A stretch of 64,000 nucleotides of DNA from an uncultured Actinomycetes bacterium (lineage in GTDB: Bacteria; Actinomycetota; Actinomycetes; Nanopelagicales; Nanopelagicaceae), in assembly GCA_937888825.1 (NCBI GenBank), contig CALBFE010000106.1, forward strand, positions 9,551-73,550, given 5' to 3'. Positions 37,158-63,409 of this stretch are shown here, in pieces. Position numbers and translations under genes: made by a program. A model generated the notes under the pieces. It was not told where the DNA came from, made no database searches, and saw only the letters and a list, made by a program, of their open reading frames with translations. Position 1 is the first letter of the stretch; the number at the start of each line of letters is the position of its first letter.

Positions 37158-38171
37158 ATGGCTGGAATTAAGGAAGTTGCAGAGGAAGCCGGAGTCTCCA
37201 CGGCAACTGTTTCACGAGCCCTTCGCGGCCTTCACCATGTAAATGACTCCACTCGATTAAAGATTATTGCAGCTGCCGAGAAATTAAACTATCCGCTCAC
37301 ACCTATCAAGGGTAATACCGCCTTTGGACGAACAAATAGCGTTGGAGTTGTCGCACCTTATATTTCACGCTGGTATTTCTCACAAGTAATTAGCGGAGCC
37401 GAGCAAGCATTACGCGAAGCAGGTCTAGATCTTCTTCTCTATAACTTCAGTCAAATGAAAGGCCGAGAAAGGTTATTTCAACACCAGTTACTCAAGGGCC
37501 GTGTTGACGCACTCATTGTTATCAGCTTGCCACCAACAGCTGAGGAATTTGATTCCATGCTTAGCCTTGGTATTCCAATTGCCTTGATTGGTATGGAGCA
37601 TGAAAAATGTGCTTCTGTAAAAATTGATGATATTGCGGGTTCTCGTTCTGCAACTCAACATTTAGTCAATCAAGGACATAAGAAAATCGGATTAATGTCA
37701 GGGCGTCCTGATGATCCATTTAATTTCAGCGTTCCACAAGATCGCCGCAAAGGTTTCATGCAAGTGTTAGCAGAAAACGGCCTGGAGTGGTTACCTCAGC
37801 GTGAAGTCCATGGTGATTTCACAATGCATACTGCTGCCCGCGCAATGGATGATTTATTAGCTCGCCCTAACCGACCAACAGCCATTTTTTGTGAATCTGA
37901 TGAGATGGCCATGGGGGCTATGCAAGCACTACGTCGACATGGATTAAAAGCTCCAGATGATATTTCTATTGTTGGTTTTGATGGCCATGAGATGGCAGAG
38001 TTTTCAGAGCTCACAACTATTGAACAACCCGTGCAACTCATGGGTGAAATGGCGGCCTGGTCGATTATGGAGAGATTGCGCAAACCAAATATTGATCCAC
38101 CTTCACTCGTACTGCCAACAACATTGGTCGTGCGAAATTCAACGCGTCGAATTAGCCCGAAAGAGGCTTAG
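37158..38171 (+). CDS. LacI family regulator
   Basis: IKEVAEEAGVSTATVSRAL HTH; PDDISIVGFD. Confidence 0.93.
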   Translation: MAGIKEVAEEAGVSTATVSRALRGLHHVNDSTRLKIIAAAEKLNYPLTPIKGNTAFGRTNSVGVVAPYISRWYFSQVISGAEQALREAGLDLLLYNFSQMKGRERLFQHQLLKGRVDALIVISLPPTAEEFDSMLSLGIPIALIGMEHEKCASVKIDDIAGSRSATQHLVNQGHKKIGLMSGRPDDPFNFSVPQDRRKGFMQVLAENGLEWLPQREVHGDFTMHTAARAMDDLLARPNRPTAIFCESDEMAMGAMQALRRHGLKAPDDISIVGFDGHEMAEFSELTTIEQPVQLMGEMAAWSIMERLRKPNIDPPSLVLPTTLVVRNSTRRISPKEA

Positions 38172-54556: not shown

Positions 54557-55495
54557 GTGCTGGGGGTTGTTTTCAATTATTTTCAACCAGTGAAAGAAAG
54601 CGTCCGAATCCTTAAAAACCTTGAAGATGAGTCCATTGAAATCCTTCGAGAAACTGCCGCTACCTTCGCTAAGCCCGTGATGATGTATTCCATAGGCAAG
54701 GACTCATCGGTCCTATTGCACTTAGCTAAAAAAGCTTTTTATCCTGGCTTTATTCCTTTCCCCCTCTTGCATGTGGATACAACATGGAAGTTCAAAGAGA
54801 TGATTGCATTTCGTGATCAGGTTGTAGCCGATGCAAAAGTCAATCTCATCGTCCATACTAATCAAGATGGTGTTGCAGCTGGTATTAATCCATTCACATC
54901 AGGGATTTCTGAATACACCCGGGTAATGAAAACTGTTGCATTGCGTCAAGCTTTAGATGAACATCGTTTTGACGCAGCAATTGGTGGATCGCGACGTGAT
55001 GAAGAAAAATCACGGGCGAAAGAAAGAATCTTTAGTGTTCGAGGTGCTGGACATTCGTGGAACCCTCGAGCCCAGCGTCCTGAACTATGGCGCTCTTATA
55101 ACACCCGGCTTGCATCGCAGGAGACTATGCGCGTATTTCCACTTTCTGATTGGACAGAATCAGATATTTGGATGTACATATTGCAAGAAAATATTGAGGT
55201 TAACCCTTTGTACTTTGCTAAGCCACGCCCCATGGTTGCACGTGGGGATCAATGGATCATGGTTGATGACGAACGCTTTCCTTTGCTAGATGGTGAAACA
55301 CCACAAATGCGCACAATGCGCTTTAGAACTCTCGGTTGCTATCCATTAACAGCTGCCGTGGATTCAGAAGCACAAACAATTGAAGAGATTGTCGAAGAAG
55401 TTCTGCAGGTCAAACTTTCAGAACGTGCCACACGTCTAATCGATGGCGCTGGCGAAGACTCCATGGAGAAGAAAAAGACTGAAGGTTATTTCTAA
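54557..55495 (+). CDS. cysD: Sulfate adenylyltransferase subunit 2 (NodP-like)
   Basis: [41 protein letters not shown]; true start may be GTG 54590. Confidence 0.96.
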
Positions 55496-57318
55496 TGTCT
55501 AGATCGGTAATCAGGTTACTGACCTGCGGCAGCGTCGATGATGGTAAGAGCACACTGATAGGACGCTTATTGGTCGAGACTGACAGCGTTCCACACGACA
55601 CAATTAGCGCCGCTCGCTTCACACGTAGGAGTGGCTCAACAATTTCTTCAGGTGAAGTTGATTACAGCCTGTTAACTGATGGATTAGAAGCCGAGCGCGA
55701 GCAAGGCATTACCATCGATGTTGCCTATCGATCAATGTCACTTCGTGATGGAAAACGTTTAATAATTTCAGATGCACCAGGCCATGAGCAGTACACCAGA
55801 AATATGGTTGTTGCAGCCTCCCGGGCCGATATTGGCTTAGTACTAGTTGATGCAACTAAAGGTGTGCGCACTCAAACCCTTCGCCATTCCACTATCTGCG
55901 CAATCATGGGAGTTAAGCGAATAATTGTTGCAATTAACAAGTTAGATGCGCTGGGATATTCTCAAGAGGTATACACGCAGATTCACAATGAGCTTAGTCC
56001 ACTATTTACCAAATTAGGAATTGATGACGTTCGTTTCATTCCAATGAGTGCACTCAATGGTGACAACGTCACTACTGCAAGCTCGACGATGAGCTGGTAT
56101 TCAGGTGAGACATTGCTAGATGCTATTCAAGGATGGAATCCTGCAGCTCATGTTGGTAGTGATTCACGCATGGACATTCAATTAATTTCACGAGCCGAAG
56201 ATTTTCGTGGAGTCTCTGGAACAGTTCACGGTGCTGGATTTGCTGCAGGTGATAAAGTCACCGTCCTGCCATCTAAGCAGAAGGCTACAATTGCAAAGAT
56301 TGTTACCTACAACAATGAGAATGCAACCGCTGGCGATTTAGAGTCAGTGACATTAGTGCTAGAGCCTGATATTGATGCCACACGAGGCGATGTCATCGTA
56401 AATGATGGAAATGAATTAGAGATTTCAAACCGCTATCAGGCAAAAATCGTGTGGTTGCATGAAGAACCCCTTGTTCAAAGCCGTTCCTATCTCTTAATTT
56501 CTGGCCCTACTCAAGCTCCCGTAACGATTTCCAAGATTAAGTATGTACTTGATGTAGTTAGCGGTGAGGAAAAACCAGCTCAAAAGCTTCAGGTAAATGA
56601 GATTGGTTTGGTCGAAATCGCAACTGATCGTGCGATTGCCCTTGAGCCGTATTCCCAATCGCGACAGTACGGAAATTTTGTAATTGTCGATCGCCTTACT
56701 CAACAAACAGTTGGAGCAGGGATGGTCGAGCATTCACTGCGCAGAGGCACGAACATCACTCATCAGGCATATGAAGTGGCAAGAAGTGATCGTTCTCTAC
56801 AAAAATCACAAAAGGCACAGATTATTTGGCTCACAGGTTTATCTGGTTCTGGTAAGTCAACTATTGCTAATGAGTTAGCCAAGCAGCTCTTTGCCCAAGG
56901 TTTCCATGCCTATGTCCTAGATGGAGATAACTTGCGCTCAGGGTTAAATATGGATTTGGGTTTCACACCAGAAGATAGAGCAGAAAATGTGCGCCGAGTT
57001 TCTGAGGTCGCAAAATTGATGCTTGATTCCGGATTAATTGTGATTACAGCTCTGGTCAGTCCCTTTGAAACCGATCGCCAGAGAGCACGCAGCCTGGTTG
57101 AAGAGGGTGAGTTCATGGAAATCTTTATCGATACGCCAATAGAAATCTGTAGAGCACGCGACCCTAAGAGTCTCTACAAGAAAGCAGACAGTGGCAAAAT
57201 CCCTAACTTCACCGGCATTGGCCAAGAGTATGAAGTTCCATTGCACCCTGAGTTAGTCATTGATGGCACAAAACCATTATTGGACTCAGTAAAGCTAATC
57301 ATGGCGCGCATTCAATGA
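55495..57318 (+). CDS. cysNC: Fused ATP sulfurylase GTPase subunit / APS kinase (NodQ-like)
   Basis: GSVDDGKSTLIGRLL, DAPGHEQYTRNM, NKLD; C-terminal WLTGLSGSGKST, LDGDNLR, NFTGI...YEVP. Confidence 0.96.
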   Translation: MSRSVIRLLTCGSVDDGKSTLIGRLLVETDSVPHDTISAARFTRRSGSTISSGEVDYSLLTDGLEAEREQGITIDVAYRSMSLRDGKRLIISDAPGHEQYTRNMVVAASRADIGLVLVDATKGVRTQTLRHSTICAIMGVKRIIVAINKLDALGYSQEVYTQIHNELSPLFTKLGIDDVRFIPMSALNGDNVTTASSTMSWYSGETLLDAIQGWNPAAHVGSDSRMDIQLISRAEDFRGVSGTVHGAGFAAGDKVTVLPSKQKATIAKIVTYNNENATAGDLESVTLVLEPDIDATRGDVIVNDGNELEISNRYQAKIVWLHEEPLVQSRSYLLISGPTQAPVTISKIKYVLDVVSGEEKPAQKLQVNEIGLVEIATDRAIALEPYSQSRQYGNFVIVDRLTQQTVGAGMVEHSLRRGTNITHQAYEVARSDRSLQKSQKAQIIWLTGLSGSGKSTIANELAKQLFAQGFHAYVLDGDNLRSGLNMDLGFTPEDRAENVRRVSEVAKLMLDSGLIVITALVSPFETDRQRARSLVEEGEFMEIFIDTPIEICRARDPKSLYKKADSGKIPNFTGIGQEYEVPLHPELVIDGTKPLLDSVKLIMARIQ

Positions 57319-58067
57319 ACTGGATTCTTTTTGCTTTAGCTGGATCAGTTGCTCAATTTGTTGATGGCACTTTAGGGATGGGCTTTGGCCTATTAAGTTC
57401 TACCCTTTTACTGACTTTGGGGGCATCGGCTGCCCTATCCTCGACAGCGGTGCACATGGCAGAGATTTGTACGACTTTGGCATCAGGCGCATCGCATTGG
57501 CACGCAGAAAATATTGATAAAAACGTATTGCGTCGTCTGGCAATTCCTGGCGGAGTTGGTGCATTTTTGGGGGCAACTTTTTTATCTTTTATTGATCTCA
57601 CCAACGGTCGAATCTTTGTATCAACGTTGCTTTTATTCCTTGGATTCTTACTGCTCTATCGAAACTTGTTTTCCAATCAGCAGACAAACGCTATTGAAAT
57701 TAAGAACCCACGCTTTCTTACCTATCTAGGCTTTACAGGTGGTTTTATAGATGCAGCAGGTGGCGGCGGATGGGGCCCGTTAGTAACTCCCACTTTGCTT
57801 TCTACAACCAGTACAGAACCTAGAAAAGTCATTGGAACAGTAAGTGCGTCCGAATTCATTGTGGCCGTTGCAGCAAGTACGGGCTTTCTTATCAACTTCA
57901 ATCGCGTTGACATTGATTGGAGCGTGGTGGGTGGGTTGGCTTTGGGTGGAACGATTATGGCGCCTATTGCTGCTCGTATCGTAAGAAATCTGCCCCGTAA
58001 ACAACTGGGTCTTTTTGTTGCACTAGCTATTATTGCAATAAATGGTTACCGAATCATTATTGGTTAA
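57315..58067 (+). CDS. TSUP (TauE/SafE) permease, candidate sulfate transporter
   Basis: QFVDGTLGMGFG, DAAGGGGWGP; ATGA overlap with cysNC. Confidence 0.85.
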   Translation: MNWILFALAGSVAQFVDGTLGMGFGLLSSTLLLTLGASAALSSTAVHMAEICTTLASGASHWHAENIDKNVLRRLAIPGGVGAFLGATFLSFIDLTNGRIFVSTLLLFLGFLLLYRNLFSNQQTNAIEIKNPRFLTYLGFTGGFIDAAGGGGWGPLVTPTLLSTTSTEPRKVIGTVSASEFIVAVAASTGFLINFNRVDIDWSVVGGLALGGTIMAPIAARIVRNLPRKQLGLFVALAIIAINGYRIIIG

Positions 58068-58072
58068 GTTGA

Positions 58073-59005
58073 CTAGTAGTACTGCTCGATCTCTATCCCT
58101 TGGGAGTAGAGTTCTTGAAGAATCTGAGAATATCTTCTTTCAAAGGCATTAGGATTTTTCACAACTTTAGCCCAATCTCCTTGAGACATTTTTTCAGCAA
58201 GTAGAACTTCGTCATAGTATTTACGCAAGGTATCGTTGTCATCAAGATTTAAAAAAGTGAGAACCTTTCGATATGTCGCATCACGATCGTGAACTATGAA
58301 ATCCTCTAATCGCACGGTGATGTGGTTATCTTCTGGAATTTTCTTTAACGCTAAGAAAGACTTTTCGATTCTGCCCTTCCACCATTCCAGCGCTTCTTCG
58401 GGCGTGCTTGGGCCCCATTTTTCTTTACTAACCGACAATGCGACATCACGACCATCGCGAACCATATTTATAAATAATGAGTTTGGCATGAAGCGGGAGA
58501 TGCGATTGGCATTTTGAATATTTAAAGGAGTTGAATCGGCAAAATATTTAACGCTTTGATCCTTAAGTTGAGCTCTAGATAGTTCAAAAAAGAGGTCTTG
58601 GGATGCCCCCAGTAGATCCTCTTTTGATTTGAAATCAAAGCGTTCAAGAGCACGATTGAGATCCTCGCGCTCTATTCCCTGTACTAAACCTCGAGGTTTG
58701 CCCGTTTTACCCTCCTGGCTCCACCATCTGGTAGAAATTCTTTCTCTGAAAACCTGATGCTTGCTCTTTCCAAGCAGCAGAGAAGTACGTAAAAAAACTC
58801 TTTTTCTCACCTCGCGCCGGCTGGTTTCAAAAGCTAGGGGCCTGCCAAAGTTGAGATCCAACAGACCGGCACGGTCAGTGAGATATTTAATTTCACGGGG
58901 CATGCTGGTGTGAAATTCGGGGTGGCGGGTCAGGCAATTGACGATAGCCGTAGTGCCGCTACGACCTGTACCACCTGAAAAAACAGGTGTGAAATCAATA
59001 CGCAT
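58073..59005 (-). CDS. Sulfotransferase (Sulfotransfer_3-like), paralog A
   Basis: 5'-PSB GTGRSGTT; 3'-PB MVRDGRDVALS. Confidence 0.88.
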   Translation of the reverse strand: MRIDFTPVFSGGTGRSGTTAIVNCLTRHPEFHTSMPREIKYLTDRAGLLDLNFGRPLAFETSRREVRKRVFLRTSLLLGKSKHQVFRERISTRWWSQEGKTGKPRGLVQGIEREDLNRALERFDFKSKEDLLGASQDLFFELSRAQLKDQSVKYFADSTPLNIQNANRISRFMPNSLFINMVRDGRDVALSVSKEKWGPSTPEEALEWWKGRIEKSFLALKKIPEDNHITVRLEDFIVHDRDATYRKVLTFLNLDDNDTLRKYYDEVLLAEKMSQGDWAKVVKNPNAFERRYSQILQELYSQGIEIEQYY

Positions 59006-59055
59006 CTAGATATCTTAAGGTCGTAAATCCTCTTATGTGGCGATAATCTGTCTGT

Positions 59056-60024
59056 GTGGCATATTCACCGAAAACTCACATTCCAGTTCCGATATTTATA
59101 GGCGGCACAGGTAGAAGTGGCACCACGATTCTTGGAGATATGCTCAATGAGCATTCATTGATTAGAACTAGCAATCCTACCGAGATCAAATTTCTGGCTA
59201 ATAGAGGTGGCTTACTTGATGTAATTTTTGGATCACAGAGCTCTAATATATTAAAGCGTCAACAAATATCTGTGTTGTACTTTCGGACTCGGAGAGAAAG
59301 AAAACGCAAAGATGCTCTAGCTAGGACTATTCGAGTTCAAGAGTTTAGAGAAAAGCTTTGGCAAAAGTGGTGGGAGATTGACGCAAAACCACCGCATGGA
59401 CCAGGCCTACATGTTGGAATAATGAAAGAAGTACTGACAGATATTGTCAATAAATTTGAAAAGTCAATGAATAAAAGTCCAGCCCGTGCTGGAAGACGAT
59501 TTATGGACAGATTTATATCCTCCCAGTTTGATTCAACTAGCAAAAAGAAATATTGGGTCGAGACCACACCCATGAATATTTCGTATGCCCAACACTTAAC
59601 CACTCTTTATCCTCAAGCACGTTTTATCGTAATGCGGCGCGATCCTCGAGATGTTATTGCCTCTCTTATAACTAAAGACTGGGGGCCATCAACGCCGCTG
59701 GAGGGTATTGAATGGATTGAAAAAAGATTACGTTCAGATGCCCATGGTCAAAGTTTTATCCCCAAAAGCCAACTGCTCGTTATTAATCTGGAAGATTTAG
59801 TTACGAACAATCCTGAGCAGACCTATAACAAGATATTAAAGTTTCTTGCAATTGAAGACGAGCCTGCAGTGCGAACTTTTCACCAAGAAAAAATGAATGG
59901 CGATCTTGCATCCTCTGGTCGCTGGAAAAGTCAAATAGATTCACCGGAGTTTGTTTCCGCAACCGCACAAATGTTGCAACGCTTAAAGGACGAGGCAATC
60001 GAATCCGGCTTAATCTTGATGTAG
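59056..60024 (+). CDS. Sulfotransferase (Sulfotransfer_3-like), paralog B
   Basis: 5'-PSB GTGRSGTT; WVETTP; 3'-PB MRRDPRDVIAS. Confidence 0.88.
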   Translation: MAYSPKTHIPVPIFIGGTGRSGTTILGDMLNEHSLIRTSNPTEIKFLANRGGLLDVIFGSQSSNILKRQQISVLYFRTRRERKRKDALARTIRVQEFREKLWQKWWEIDAKPPHGPGLHVGIMKEVLTDIVNKFEKSMNKSPARAGRRFMDRFISSQFDSTSKKKYWVETTPMNISYAQHLTTLYPQARFIVMRRDPRDVIASLITKDWGPSTPLEGIEWIEKRLRSDAHGQSFIPKSQLLVINLEDLVTNNPEQTYNKILKFLAIEDEPAVRTFHQEKMNGDLASSGRWKSQIDSPEFVSATAQMLQRLKDEAIESGLILM

Positions 60025-60104
60025 CCCCAATCTCACAAGGTATTCCCAGGATTATTACAACTATTTGGCGCCTGACACACTGTTTTACCCTATAGATTAA
60101 AAAT

Positions 60105-60983
60105 ATGATATCTGCTGAAAATCTTCCCAAGCATCAAAGAGTTCGTGTTGGTTTAGTTGGATTCGGTAAAACCGGACGAGCCGTGGCTTCGGTATTGCTG
60201 CACGACAAAACAATTGATTTAGTGTGGGTGGTGAGGAAAAGTAACACTCTTGATATGCGCTCAGTACCAGAGTTTCTTGGAATCGAATCAGATGAAGATG
60301 GCACCATTCACTGCACTGATGCTGTGGATTTTGAATCCCTACAAGCAAGCTCGCCAGTAGATGCAATAATTGACTTCAGTTCCGAATCGGGCATGGATTA
60401 CTACGGTGAAAGTGCCGCCGAGCTTGGCATAACAATAGTCTCAGCCATTTCAAATCTTTCAAACGCAAGAATTAATTCACTCAAGAATTACTCTAAAACT
60501 ACCCGAGTCTTATGGTCTCCAAATATAACTTTGGGAATTAATTTTCTGATAGTTGCCGCTAAAACTCTACAAGAACTAGCGCCTCAGGCTGATGTGTCAA
60601 TTCTCGAGGAGCACTTCAAATTAAAACCAGAGGTTTCTGGAACTGCGCTAAAGATTTCTGCTGCGCTAAATTTAGATCCAGAGGACATTCGAACAATTCG
60701 AGCTGGTGGAATTATTGGAGTTCATGAAGTTCTTTTTGGATTCCCCTTCCAAACGGTCAGGTTAAAGCACGAGTCAATTTCCCGAGAATCATTTGGAAAT
60801 GGGGCTAAATTCGGCCTCATGGAGATCCAAAAGCGTGACATTGGTTTCTACAATATGGAGGATTTAGTGGGAAAATTCTTTGTTGATGCGAATAGTAAAT
60901 ACGCCACAACTCCTAACCCAAAGATAGAAAACAAAGGCTTGCTGGGTAAGGTCATTAGATTTCTCTACCACCGCTTTGGATAG
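60105..60983 (+). CDS. DapB-like NAD(P)-dependent reductase, divergent
   Basis: GLVGFGKTG, IIDFS, WSPNITLGIN, EEHFKLKPEVSGTA, IRAGGIIGVHEV, R.SFG.GA. Confidence 0.75.
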   Translation: MISAENLPKHQRVRVGLVGFGKTGRAVASVLLHDKTIDLVWVVRKSNTLDMRSVPEFLGIESDEDGTIHCTDAVDFESLQASSPVDAIIDFSSESGMDYYGESAAELGITIVSAISNLSNARINSLKNYSKTTRVLWSPNITLGINFLIVAAKTLQELAPQADVSILEEHFKLKPEVSGTALKISAALNLDPEDIRTIRAGGIIGVHEVLFGFPFQTVRLKHESISRESFGNGAKFGLMEIQKRDIGFYNMEDLVGKFFVDANSKYATTPNPKIENKGLLGKVIRFLYHRFG

Positions 60984-61039
60984 AGCTATTAGTCATTTAA
61001 TGATTGATTTACAGATAAATCCCGGGTTCACTTACGTAA

Positions 61040-61078
61040 GTGGGTAGTGAAGGACTTGAACCCCAACACGGGTTATGT
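61040..61078 (-). other. Degenerate tRNA 3' half (possible att-site remnant)
   Basis: Minus strand: CATAA CCCGT GTT GGGG TTCAAGT CCTTC ACTACCC A C, i.e. anticodon-loop-like, T-arm and acceptor 3' strand; no intact 5' half. Confidence 0.4.
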
Positions 61079-61546
61079 ACTCTCATGGTCCACATATTGA
61101 TGTAACCGAGCTTGAACTATCTCTCATATTAGGGAAGTGCTCTGACATCTTCCACATTTTGAACTGATATTGGACAGTTAGGGCTCTTACTTTCCATCCT
61201 CAAATGCTTCGGTCAATGTCATACGTTGGGGTATTGAGTTGACTGGGAATGAGGACTCCTCCCACATCTCAGCTCCGACCAAAGAAGCCGTAGAGTCAAA
61301 ATTGTAGTGAGCAAGATTGTCATTCCTTTGACCCATTACACCGATATATCCGTTTTCAAATAGGGGAGAGTTGATCCCTATCTGGGGTGAGAAAAGCCAT
61401 GAAGGCAAGGAGTAGCCAATCTGTCTAAAAAAACTACAATAAGGAAGTGACAACCAGACTCAAAGTAGTCATCTTGCATCTAGCATCCCAGGCTGTAATC
61501 AACTGTTGCTAACTGATAGAGATACACGTGCGCGTGCATTGGCTCA

Positions 61547-63409
61547 GTGATGAACGCTCAAACGCCACGCCCAGTAGATCTTCCCCACACCGACAACTGG
61601 AATGAAGCCGACATTATTGCTGGTCCATCCACGCTAGCCGATCGCCAGCAATGGCGCAGCAGATTAGTCGATTGGCGTAAAGATGCAGCCACAGGACTTA
61701 ATTACGACGACAACGCTTATCAATCCGCCGAACTTTTTAATAATCCATCATACAGTGTTGCTTTAATCTGGTTATGGGATGAACTTCTCTTTGATTTTTC
61801 AACTCAAGAATTTACGCCCGATAAGTTATTAGCAGATGCACAAAAGTTCGGTAGCTTTGATGGGATCATTTTGTGGCATGCATATCCAGTCATTGGGATT
61901 GATTCACGTAATCAATTTGATTTCTATAATGATGTTCCAGGTCTTGCTCAACTGATTACCAACTTTCAAAAAGCTGGCGTCAAAGTTTATTTGAACTACA
62001 ACCCGTGGGATAAATGGACTAGGCGTGAATCCACTACAGATCAGTTTGGTTTAGCACAACTAATTAAGCGATTTAATTTTGATGGCGTTTTTCTTGATAC
62101 GTTGAAATCAGCTGATCCTGATTTTATGGCACCAATTATTGATGTCAAACCTGACATCGTTTTAGGCGGCGAAGCGACAGTTCAGCAAGAGCGAGTCTGC
62201 GATCACACAATGTCGTGGGGTCAGTGGTTTGTTGATAGCGAAATTCCAGGGGTTTTGCGCGCTAAATATTTTGAACCACGACACATGATTCATCAGACAC
62301 GTCGCTGGGATCGATCCCACATTGGCGAATTACATATTGCCTGGCTCAACGGTGCGGGAATGTTGATTTGGGAAGCAGTCTTTGGCTCCTGGGTAGGTTG
62401 GAATAACTATGAAGTCTGCATGTGGCGCGAGATGGTCAGCGTTCTACGCGATCATCATCCGCTCATAGTTCATGGTCATTGGGAGCCGCTGACGCAGCTA
62501 TCTGCAGCTGCCGAGGCCGCGCATCTCTATGCCTCTTCCTTTAAACTAGATGGCTGGCAGTTAATTACCATCATTAATAAAAGTAGGAATGATTACTTAG
62601 GAGTCCTTGCTTGCGGCCTGAGTGGATTAATTCCAGCAGGGGGAGTTGGTGCAATATCGATTACTCCATCGGGTGCATCGTTGCTGCCGTTTACATATAT
62701 GAAAAGTGATCAAGGTTTCCCTACCCGTACACCTGCGCGCCAATTAGATCTAGTTGGGTCCCTTACCACTTTGACGTATTCACATCGACACCGCGAATGT
62801 GGGTTTTATGAACAACCTGGCTTCATTAATACATGGAAACCAACACGTCCTGCCTTACATGAGTTCATCACTGGGGACATAGAAGTTCCGGTCGTGAATG
62901 GAGTACTCGATACATACGAAGTTAGCAATAGAGAGTTTTATGAGTTTATGCAAGCCACTCACTATGTGCCAGAAGTATCTAATCGCTTTCTTTCTCATTG
63001 GGTTAACGGCGCACCACTTACTGATCAACTTGATAACCCCATTGTCTATGTCGATCTTGATGATGCAGTTGCCTATTCAAGATGGAAGGGCTCTGAAGTT
63101 CCCAATGAATGGAACTGGCAGTTCAATGCAGATTCGATTGTACATCGAGCAACTAGCGTGTGGAATTTAACCAATAGCATTCATAGTGATGGCCGTACGC
63201 GTTTCTTAATTCTCAAGGGCGGCAGTACGTTTAATATTCACAACGGCCAAGGTGCACAGTCACCCACTGGACTTGCCGAATCTGATTGGTATATTGATGG
63301 TGGAATACAAGATAGTTCGTGGAATGAAAAACTATTATTGATGGGTGCGGGCATGTCGCGCTCAGAAAATATCGGTTTTCGATGCTTTAGGCCACACAGG
63401 GGTAACTAA
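61547..63409 (+). CDS. Fusion of a TIM-barrel/GH-like N-terminal domain and an FGE-sulfatase (SUMF1)-fold C-terminal domain
   Basis: C-terminal YEVSNREF..F..AT.Y, PIVYV..DDAVAY.RW.G, KGGS, IGFRC; N-terminal WHAYP, YNPWD, DGVFLDT. Confidence 0.7.
   Translation: MMNAQTPRPVDLPHTDNWNEADIIAGPSTLADRQQWRSRLVDWRKDAATGLNYDDNAYQSAELFNNPSYSVALIWLWDELLFDFSTQEFTPDKLLADAQKFGSFDGIILWHAYPVIGIDSRNQFDFYNDVPGLAQLITNFQKAGVKVYLNYNPWDKWTRRESTTDQFGLAQLIKRFNFDGVFLDTLKSADPDFMAPIIDVKPDIVLGGEATVQQERVCDHTMSWGQWFVDSEIPGVLRAKYFEPRHMIHQTRRWDRSHIGELHIAWLNGAGMLIWEAVFGSWVGWNNYEVCMWREMVSVLRDHHPLIVHGHWEPLTQLSAAAEAAHLYASSFKLDGWQLITIINKSRNDYLGVLACGLSGLIPAGGVGAISITPSGASLLPFTYMKSDQGFPTRTPARQLDLVGSLTTLTYSHRHRECGFYEQPGFINTWKPTRPALHEFITGDIEVPVVNGVLDTYEVSNREFYEFMQATHYVPEVSNRFLSHWVNGAPLTDQLDNPIVYVDLDDAVAYSRWKGSEVPNEWNWQFNADSIVHRATSVWNLTNSIHSDGRTRFLILKGGSTFNIHNGQGAQSPTGLAESDWYIDGGIQDSSWNEKLLLMGAGMSRSENIGFRCFRPHRGN

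Follow-up and report, generated by a model that had tools for sequence, protein, structure and literature searches.

The window analysed here is a stretch of 64,000 nucleotides from an uncultured bacterium of the Nanopelagicaceae (contig CALBFE010000106.1, positions 9,551 to 73,550 of the forward strand). Close to its end lies a gene that we call TIM-FGE, since its product joins a glycosidase-like barrel and a domain of the FGE (formylglycine-generating enzyme) fold in one protein. The open reading frame is present at 61547..63409 of the forward strand and encodes 620 residues when started at GTG 61547. The true start is likely ATG 61550, giving 619 residues; the ATG-started product is identical to a database protein, P0001, which is indexed in 88 collection blocks, and 24 contigs with it were read. 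Residue numbers below follow the 620-residue (GTG-start) scheme throughout.

The gene follows a sulfation module, from which it is separated by a spacer and by the relic of a gene of the ARH (ADP-ribosylglycohydrolase) family, here named ARH2 (Table 1). Downstream is a convergent gene encoding an MscS-type channel, in the place where relatives of TIM-FGE have genes for a CoA-transferase and a lyase. The protein consists of three parts: a barrel of the (beta/alpha)8 glycosidase type is followed by a beta-sandwich and then by a cysteine-less FGE/C-type-lectin-like domain. The reading that we favour, and consider rather likely, is that TIM-FGE encodes an orphaned cytoplasmic glycosidase-like enzyme of an operon for ribose conjugates, that its FGE-like domain is not a redox domain, and that its adjacency to the sulfation genes is accidental.

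Table 1. Features in and around the TIM-FGE gene (positions in the window)
Feature	Position	Strand	Residues	Basis
Sulfation module: CysD, CysNC, TauE, two Sulfotransfer_3, DapB-like	54557..60983			Pfam
Spacer between DapB-like gene and ARH2 relic, with the junction of two unrelated gene sets	60984..61472
ARH2 3'-end relic, 25 codons LASSIPGCNQLLLTDRDTRARALAQ + TGA	61473..61550	+		tblastn, DNA alignment
N-terminal segment, with long helix at residues 30-51	61547..61741	+	1-65	DSSP of AF2 model
TIM-FGE gene	61550..63409	+	619 from ATG
(beta/alpha)8 barrel	61742..62476	+	~66-310	AF2, Foldseek
Barrel strands b1, b2, b3, b4			70-75, 106-110, 146-151, 180-183	DSSP of AF2 model
Barrel strands b5, b6, b7, b8			205-209, 222-226, 247-251, 271-274	DSSP of AF2 model
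D184 codon, candidate catalytic nucleophile	62096..62098	+	184	topology, conservation, GH13/GH27/GH129 analogy
E209 codon, candidate general acid/base	62171..62173	+	209	conservation, topology
D230 codon, alternative candidate acid/base	62234-62236	+	230	conservation, position after b6
All-beta sandwich resembling 'domain C'	62477..62686	+	~311-380	DSSP strands 311-379; Foldseek
FGE/SUMF1-fold domain without catalytic Cys pair	62759..63406	+	~405-620	Pfam, PDB

The barrel, the sandwich and the FGE-like domain

The first ~440 residues of the protein match nothing among the Pfam, NCBIfam and PDB sequences, permissive thresholds included. In the barrel region there is no Pfam match even at E<=1, and membership of glycoside hydrolase family GH13 is thus not seen at the level of sequence (PF00128). 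The fold was obtained from two AlphaFold2 (AF2) models. The full-length model, based on a 29-sequence alignment, has pLDDT 77 and pTM 0.82 and is weak at residues 209-255. The model of residues 1-400, based on a 77-sequence alignment reaching ~25% identity, repaired this weak segment and has pLDDT 94.7 and pTM 0.93. In the latter, eight beta-strands alternate with helices and are followed by an all-beta domain. The initial annotation had placed a glycoside hydrolase-like TIM barrel in the N-terminal ~400 residues, and the region is indeed confidently modelled as one.

Foldseek comparison of the model of residues 1-400 with the PDB yielded the 3,6-anhydro-D-galactosidase ZgGH129 (5opq, 8rzk; E 2e-12, TMq 0.51), GH13 enzymes (TVAII, neopullulanase, NPDE, maltogenic amylase, GlgE, TreS; E 1e-10 to 1e-8, TMq 0.45-0.51), and a GH27 beta-L-arabinopyranosidase (3a21; E 4e-8, TMq 0.43), all at 10-14% identity. 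The alignments to GH13 and GH129 span the barrel and the sandwich together, and the same families are recovered with the full-length model. At the fold level, the protein resembles the GH129, GH13 and GH27 glycosidases in its (beta/alpha)8 barrel, in the beta-sandwich C-terminal to it, and in the acidic residues that follow strands b4 and b5/b6. In contrast to these enzymes, it is not matched by any glycoside hydrolase model of Pfam or NCBIfam and has an obligatory C-terminal FGE-like domain.

The motifs listed in the initial annotation are all found in place, both in the barrel (WHAYP 110-114, RNQFDFY 121-127, YNPWD 151-155, DGVFLDT 179-185, GGE 207-209) and in the FGE-like domain (YEVSNREF 457-464, PIVYVDLDDAVAYSRW 498-513, KGGS 557-560, TFNIHNGQGA 561-570, GFRC 610-613). 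Positions D78, D105, D119, N122, Q123, D125, W154, D155, D184, E209, H246, and R253 are near-invariant in the 77-sequence alignment. D184 ends strand b4 within DGVFLDT; the actinobacterial alignment has it invariant, and in the 77-sequence alignment its conservation is at least 90% down to ~25% identity. E209 ends strand b5 within GGE and is at least 90% conserved in both alignments, and D230, which follows b6, is invariant in the actinobacterial one. GH13 enzymes have their nucleophile after b4 and their acid/base after b5; in GH27, GH36 and GH129 the two residues come after b4 and b6, respectively. By analogy, we infer that D184 would be the nucleophile and either E209 or D230 the acid/base. 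The patterns DGxxLDxxK after b4 and GGE after b5 recall GH13 regions II and III, respectively; region IV (HD) of GH13 was not identified in the protein.

The only Pfam domain of the TIM-FGE protein is PF03781 (FGE-sulfatase), which matches residues 454-530 (E 3.6e-11, 43.6 bits at a cut-off of 23.3), the match being limited to profile positions 39-124 of 255. The family profile matches FGE/SUMF1/SUMF2 chains of the PDB with E 4e-13 to 4e-10, and the PDB sequence matches, all made through one central segment, are FGE/SUMF1, SUMF2, CalU17, EgtB, SenA, and OvsA. Judged by these sequence matches, the assignment of the FGE fold is far beyond chance. The domain was found in all 19 diverse full-length relatives that were scanned.

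Of the five cysteines in the protein (218, 291, 356, 418, 613), only C418 and C613 are in the C-terminal domain. As noted in the initial annotation, there is no CxxxxC after GGS; the sequence beyond KGGS is TFNIHNGQGAQSPTGLAESDWY. In none of the 139 relatives having both the GGS and the GFRC landmarks is the FGE cysteine pair present in register, the three regular-expression matches being unrelated cysteines. The actinobacterial alignment shows that the acI clade has an insertion of ~12 residues beyond GGS (NIHNGQGAQSPTGLAE). Since the copper-binding cysteine pair is lost, production of formylglycine is impossible. Neither is there a DinB-type iron domain in the Pfam and NCBIfam scans of the protein: the NCBIfam models SenA and EgtB score 23.4 bits (cut-off 420) and 18 bits (cut-off 360), each over ~40-55 residues. 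The cysteine pair being absent family-wide, with no EgtB-type DinB/iron domain, the protein is not a sulfatase maturase, in agreement with the initial annotation.

Several known proteins have the same fold. FGE/SUMF1 shares it with the C-terminal domain of TIM-FGE, which here is cysteine-less, and so does its inactive paralog pFGE/SUMF2 (PDB 1y4j); SUMF2 and PvdO likewise lack the catalytic cysteines. Unlike FGE and SUMF2, the domain considered here sits behind a glycosidase-like barrel in a probably cytoplasmic protein with no sulfatase signature nearby. The sulfoxide or selenoxide synthases EgtB, OvoA and SenA have the central motif PVxxVxxxDAxAYxxW in common with TIM-FGE. However, they contain an N-terminal DinB-type iron domain, whereas TIM-FGE does not, and its scores are far under the cut-offs of these families. 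Relatives of TIM-FGE are named in the databases 'SUMF1/EgtB/PvdO family nonheme iron enzyme' or 'formylglycine-generating enzyme family protein'. The former name is not supported for this family; it is misleading, since the family as a whole lacks the cysteines, and a glycosidase-like barrel without a model in the databases makes up most of the protein. The pTM of the full-length model suggests that the domains have a fixed arrangement, and, from sequence and model, the FGE-like domain may be read as an obligatory companion of the barrel that has a binding or structural role and no redox function.

One possibility is that the protein is not a hydrolase: the barrel might be a phosphorylase, a transglycosylase or an isomerase, or the FGE-like domain might be the catalytic, nonheme iron part. 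The relatives of GH13 include sucrose phosphorylase, GlgE, and TreS, and GlgE and trehalose synthase are indeed among the Foldseek matches; the database names of the family and its invariant specific residues in and before the FGE-like domain point in the same direction. The redox version was rejected, as there is neither a Cys pair nor a DinB, 3-His or other iron-binding partner domain, and EgtB and SenA are matched over ~50 residues at 18-23 bits with cut-offs of 360-420. The phosphorylase or transferase version has no direct counter-evidence, and an operon with a kinase suits hydrolysis and phosphorolysis equally. Taken together, we regard a non-hydrolase as improbable, and a glycosidase-like hydrolase remains the favoured reading.

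The protein is probably cytoplasmic, since its N-terminal segment (residues 1-65) contains no signal-peptide-like hydrophobic stretch and its relatives are fused to cytoplasmic PfkB and ARH proteins.

The native operon and the orphan copy

The family is large: the word-indexed search produced more than 2000 matches, and there are 253 clusters at 50% identity (E<1e-30) and 594 confirmed loci in named species-representative genomes. For the operon survey, ten partner proteins were mapped onto the 80 best loci, of which 72 were long enough to show both sides of the gene. The order LacI, permease, permease, solute-binding protein, ARH1, ARH2, (PfkB), TIM-FGE, CoA-transferase, HpcH/CitE-type lyase was observed in about 70 of these 72 loci. 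The two permeases and the solute-binding protein make up an ABC sugar importer, and PfkB, given in parentheses, is an optional member. It was found in Kribbella, Amycolatopsis, Saccharopolyspora, Prauserella, Cellulomonas, Promicromonospora, Isoptericola, Nocardioides, Catenulispora, Microbacterium, Nocardiopsis, Sphaerisporangium, and Planktophila, as well as in one metagenome-assembled genome of Limnocylindria. Individual loci of Kribbella, Amycolatopsis and Nanopelagicaceae have the same neighbours around TIM-FGE.

By NCBIfam models, the PfkB protein of the operon is ribokinase-like (241 bits to TIGR02152, slightly below the 300-bit cut-off), while the LacI protein resembles RbsR, the CoA-transferase CaiB/Frc, and the lyase RipC/CitE. 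The PDB matches of the lyase are acyl-CoA lyase beta chains and citrate lyase beta (E 4e-29). The two ARH-family proteins are distant relatives of DraG, Tri1, ARH3, and MJ1187, and PDB searches with these partners returned distant ARH3/DraG/MJ1187 matches or none, and no clue to the substrate.

In an acI population, loss of a stop codon has fused ARH2 with TIM-FGE in a protein of 1067 residues (P0004; L006 6969-10172), which was seen in three contigs and belongs to a cluster of 15 member sequences. Further fusions join PfkB with TIM-FGE (P0124, P0129) and TIM-FGE with an esterase (P0125). The existence of such natural fusions strengthens the tie between TIM-FGE and the ARH and PfkB proteins. 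On the other hand, distant members of the superfamily (863 residues, L095 894-3485; 1055 residues, L096 9001-12168) adjoin genes for GH62 or for a DeoC-family aldolase and an epimerase, and neither of them is adjacent to ARH or ribokinase genes. Thus the link to ribose is shown for the actinobacterial clade only.

Some relatives differ in composition. The long forms P0208 and P0252 have N-terminal extensions weakly resembling sugar-binding domains. The orthologs P0070, P0071 and P0076 deviate at 11-20 of ~160 near-invariant positions, P0070 having GGQ instead of GGE and DGVFQDS instead of DGVFLDT; by sequence, these three may be degenerating or neofunctionalised copies.

The window protein is 85% identical to P0002, which is encoded in an operon, and 57-67% identical to other acI orthologs along the full length, and it retains every invariant residue of the actinobacterial alignment. 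Both P0002 and the orthologs at 66-67% identity reside in the full operon. In the window itself, a tblastn search with all operon proteins detected none of the partners beyond TIM-FGE, the ARH2 relic and an unrelated LacI. The latter, a LacI-family gene at 37158-38150 whose product is 26% identical to the RbsR-like repressor of the operon, probably belongs to an unrelated sugar regulon.

The relic is 64% identical, at 61473-61547, to the last 25 residues of ARH2 from locus L004, and its stop codon overlaps the ATG of TIM-FGE (TGATG), as in intact operons. In DNA alignments, homology to five in-operon relatives begins at ~61470 and runs into the start codon, with none further upstream. The spacer has no similarity to ARH genes and no recognisable homology. 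No tRNA (ARAGORN) and no Rfam family was found in 60800-61700, and a scan of the spacer for promoters and terminators produced matches no better than those in shuffled sequence. A breakpoint at ~61470 has left the copy stranded: of the genes that once lay upstream, only the final 25 codons of ARH2 survive. The same orphan context was observed in all six contigs displayed of the 24 with the identical protein that were read (samples from JGI, ENA and NCBI).

Several observations bear on whether the stranded gene is still in use. The window copy departs from the other 28 aligned orthologs at four of the 161 near-invariant columns (K22D, G103S, I217V, V499I), while most in-operon orthologs have 0-7 such deviations. 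A relative-rate test against the in-operon P0002 with six outgroups revealed no significant acceleration on the window branch (at most 26 vs 17 unique changes, p>=0.15). Ten full-length variants in the 90% cluster are 1-5 substitutions apart, without truncating changes. A within-population comparison of nonsynonymous and synonymous substitution rates (dN/dS) was dropped, as the contigs differ at no more than 0.3% of sites and are too clonal. Finally, one metatranscriptome contains contigs with at least 99% identity over 61113-61557, 62382-62919, and 62981-63310, at a depth like that of the neighbouring genes.

Retained function and very recent stranding are both compatible with these data, the former being weakly preferred. 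The alternative is a functionless remnant, stranded recently by deletion or recombination with loss of the importer, hydrolases, regulator and promoter, and not yet degraded. It agrees with the absence of the partner genes, the 25-codon relic alone being left in the window; with the similar divergence of relic and gene (~64% vs 58% amino acid identity to L004), which is consistent with a recent event; with promoter-like sites not exceeding the shuffled expectation; and with the near-clonal population, which leaves little time for decay. However, a 1.86-kb open reading frame has remained intact within a streamlined genome; the four deviations at near-invariant positions are conservative; there has been no acceleration compared with the in-operon sister since a split at 15% amino acid divergence; none of the ten variants is truncated; and there are possible transcripts. 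We consider a functionless remnant unlikely, although it is the most probable of the alternatives to the favoured reading of an orphaned enzyme.

The sulfation neighbourhood

The initial annotation had pointed to the sulfation genes beside TIM-FGE, and Pfam searches confirmed CysD, CysNC, TauE, two Sulfotransfer_3 proteins and the DapB-like protein. Its statement that there is no sulfatase in the window agrees with the absence of the signature, at the level of regular expressions, from window open reading frames of at least 150 codons. Beyond the window end, past the MscS gene, lie a third Sulfotransfer_3 gene (L007 12946-13890) and a BTAD regulator. The region past this third sulfotransferase varies at its far end among the contigs, with GmrSD, TetR, and ion channel variants.

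To assess the association of TIM-FGE with the module, 48 loci that encode a relative of the DapB-like protein were fetched from metagenomes, and the relevant genes were mapped on them. None of the 47 loci outside the window's own population contained a TIM-FGE gene; in about 20 of them, the sequence continued for 2.5 kb or more downstream of the DapB-like gene. Many of these loci retain the adjoining CysD, CysNC and TauE genes, with or without a sulfotransferase. In the freshwater loci L106-L108, L111, L119-L127, and L143, the DapB-like gene accompanies CysD, CysNC and TauE at 59-76% identity, and the sulfotransferases are variable; the DapB-like enzyme seems to be a more constant component of the PAPS (3'-phosphoadenosine 5'-phosphosulfate) module than the sulfotransferases.

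It is conceivable that TIM-FGE was recruited by the island, and that its product acts on, trims or recycles a sulfated glycan or glycoconjugate made by the PAPS-sulfotransferase module. The gene lies between two upstream sulfotransferases and a third downstream, it is intact with no signs of decay, its context is fixed in an abundant population over many samples, and RNA contigs cover it at a neighbour-like depth. However, the 47 other contigs with the DapB-like gene, many with CysD, CysNC, TauE and sulfotransferase, do not contain TIM-FGE; the 85% relative and ~70 of the 72 loci with both sides visible are in the ribose-type operon; the ARH relic shows that the gene arrived as an operon fragment; an unrelated 560-bp spacer separates it from the module; and neither the protein nor the window carries a signature of a sulfatase or a sulfo-sugar enzyme. 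We assign to recruitment only a small chance.

Thus the structural part of the initial annotation has stood, namely the barrel, the cysteine-less FGE-like domain and the exclusion of a maturase, and the part drawn from the sulfation context has not. The suggested action on sulfated glycans, and with it a link to sulfation, is not supported, given the presence of the relatives in another operon, the ARH relic and the occurrence of the module elsewhere without TIM-FGE; nothing was found in support of the suggested 'thio-metabolite' alternative. Given the 47 module loci without the gene, the adjacency is lineage-specific and best explained by a mosaic flexible region, in agreement with the favoured reading of TIM-FGE as an orphan of the ribose-conjugate operon.

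A proposed ribose-conjugate pathway

The operon of the relatives appears to serve the import and catabolism of a compound that contains ribose, one or more additional glycosidic bonds and possibly an acidic aglycone. In the proposed scheme, the operon would import a ribose-containing glycoconjugate; the ARH-like enzymes would release ribose, to be phosphorylated by the PfkB kinase; and the barrel protein would cleave a second glycosidic bond with D184 as the nucleophile and E209 or D230 as the acid/base, probably by a retaining mechanism, given the likeness to the nearest folds. The FGE-like domain would serve as a substrate-binding or structural module, and the acidic aglycone would be passed to the CoA-transferase and the lyase. 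In the window, the stranded fragment adjoins a mobile sulfation module, presumably by chance in a mosaic island; the orphan gene, being intact, would be either useful alone or stranded too recently for decay.

The nearest described concept is that of the Rus (ribose utilisation) loci of Bacteroidetes, which are catabolic and centred on ribokinases, and whose variable enzymes include ADP-ribosylglycohydrolases, glycoside hydrolases without an assigned family, and products of genes annotated 'FGE' (Glowacki et al., bioRxiv 10.1101/574913). These loci were proposed to free ribose from ribose-containing nutrients of unknown identity, and RusGH had weak cation-dependent p-nitrophenyl-ribofuranosidase activity (10.1101/574913). 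The likeness is one of gene content. Rus loci come from a different phylum and are built on SusC/D; the actinobacterial operon additionally has the CoA-transferase and the CitE-like lyase. No paper was found on the operon, on the protein family, on FGE-TIM fusions or on a relevant 'ribofuranosidase'. The description of the protein as uncharacterised in the initial annotation still applies, as the Pfam, NCBIfam and PDB searches reveal no characterised enzyme that matches along the full length.

It is possible, although we hold it with less confidence than the assignment of the orphan to its operon, that the barrel-FGE proteins form a new glycoside hydrolase family, remotely similar to GH129, GH13 and GH27, in which the cysteine-less FGE domain is integral in substrate binding and which works together with the two ARH-like enzymes in a hitherto undescribed ribose-glycoconjugate pathway of freshwater acI and soil Actinobacteria.

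Several points weigh against the favoured reading. D184, E209 and D230 are candidate catalytic residues by topology and conservation, the likeness to glycoside hydrolase folds is distant (TM ~0.5, 10-14% identity), and GH13-like barrels also comprise phosphorylases, transferases, and isomerases. The FGE-like domain has strongly conserved family-specific motifs, RxRE 414-417 and WKPxxPxxH 430-438, and by their conservation it could contribute to catalysis. The RNA evidence consists of assembled contigs without strand information, and DNA carry-over is thus possible. The sulfotransferase genes on both sides of TIM-FGE leave some room for its recruitment into the function of the island. Finally, we found no paper giving an activity, substrate or product for any member of the family.

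Members of the family are the hallmark of a ten-gene operon that is highly conserved and occurs in hundreds of actinobacterial species, including acI, the most abundant freshwater bacteria. The current database name, which is misleading for these proteins, affects thousands of entries. Since genome mosaicism accounts best for the adjacency to the sulfation genes, the functions of the neighbours are not to be guessed from this adjacency. If ARH-type enzymes do act in small-molecule catabolism in this operon, that would be a new use of the ARH fold.

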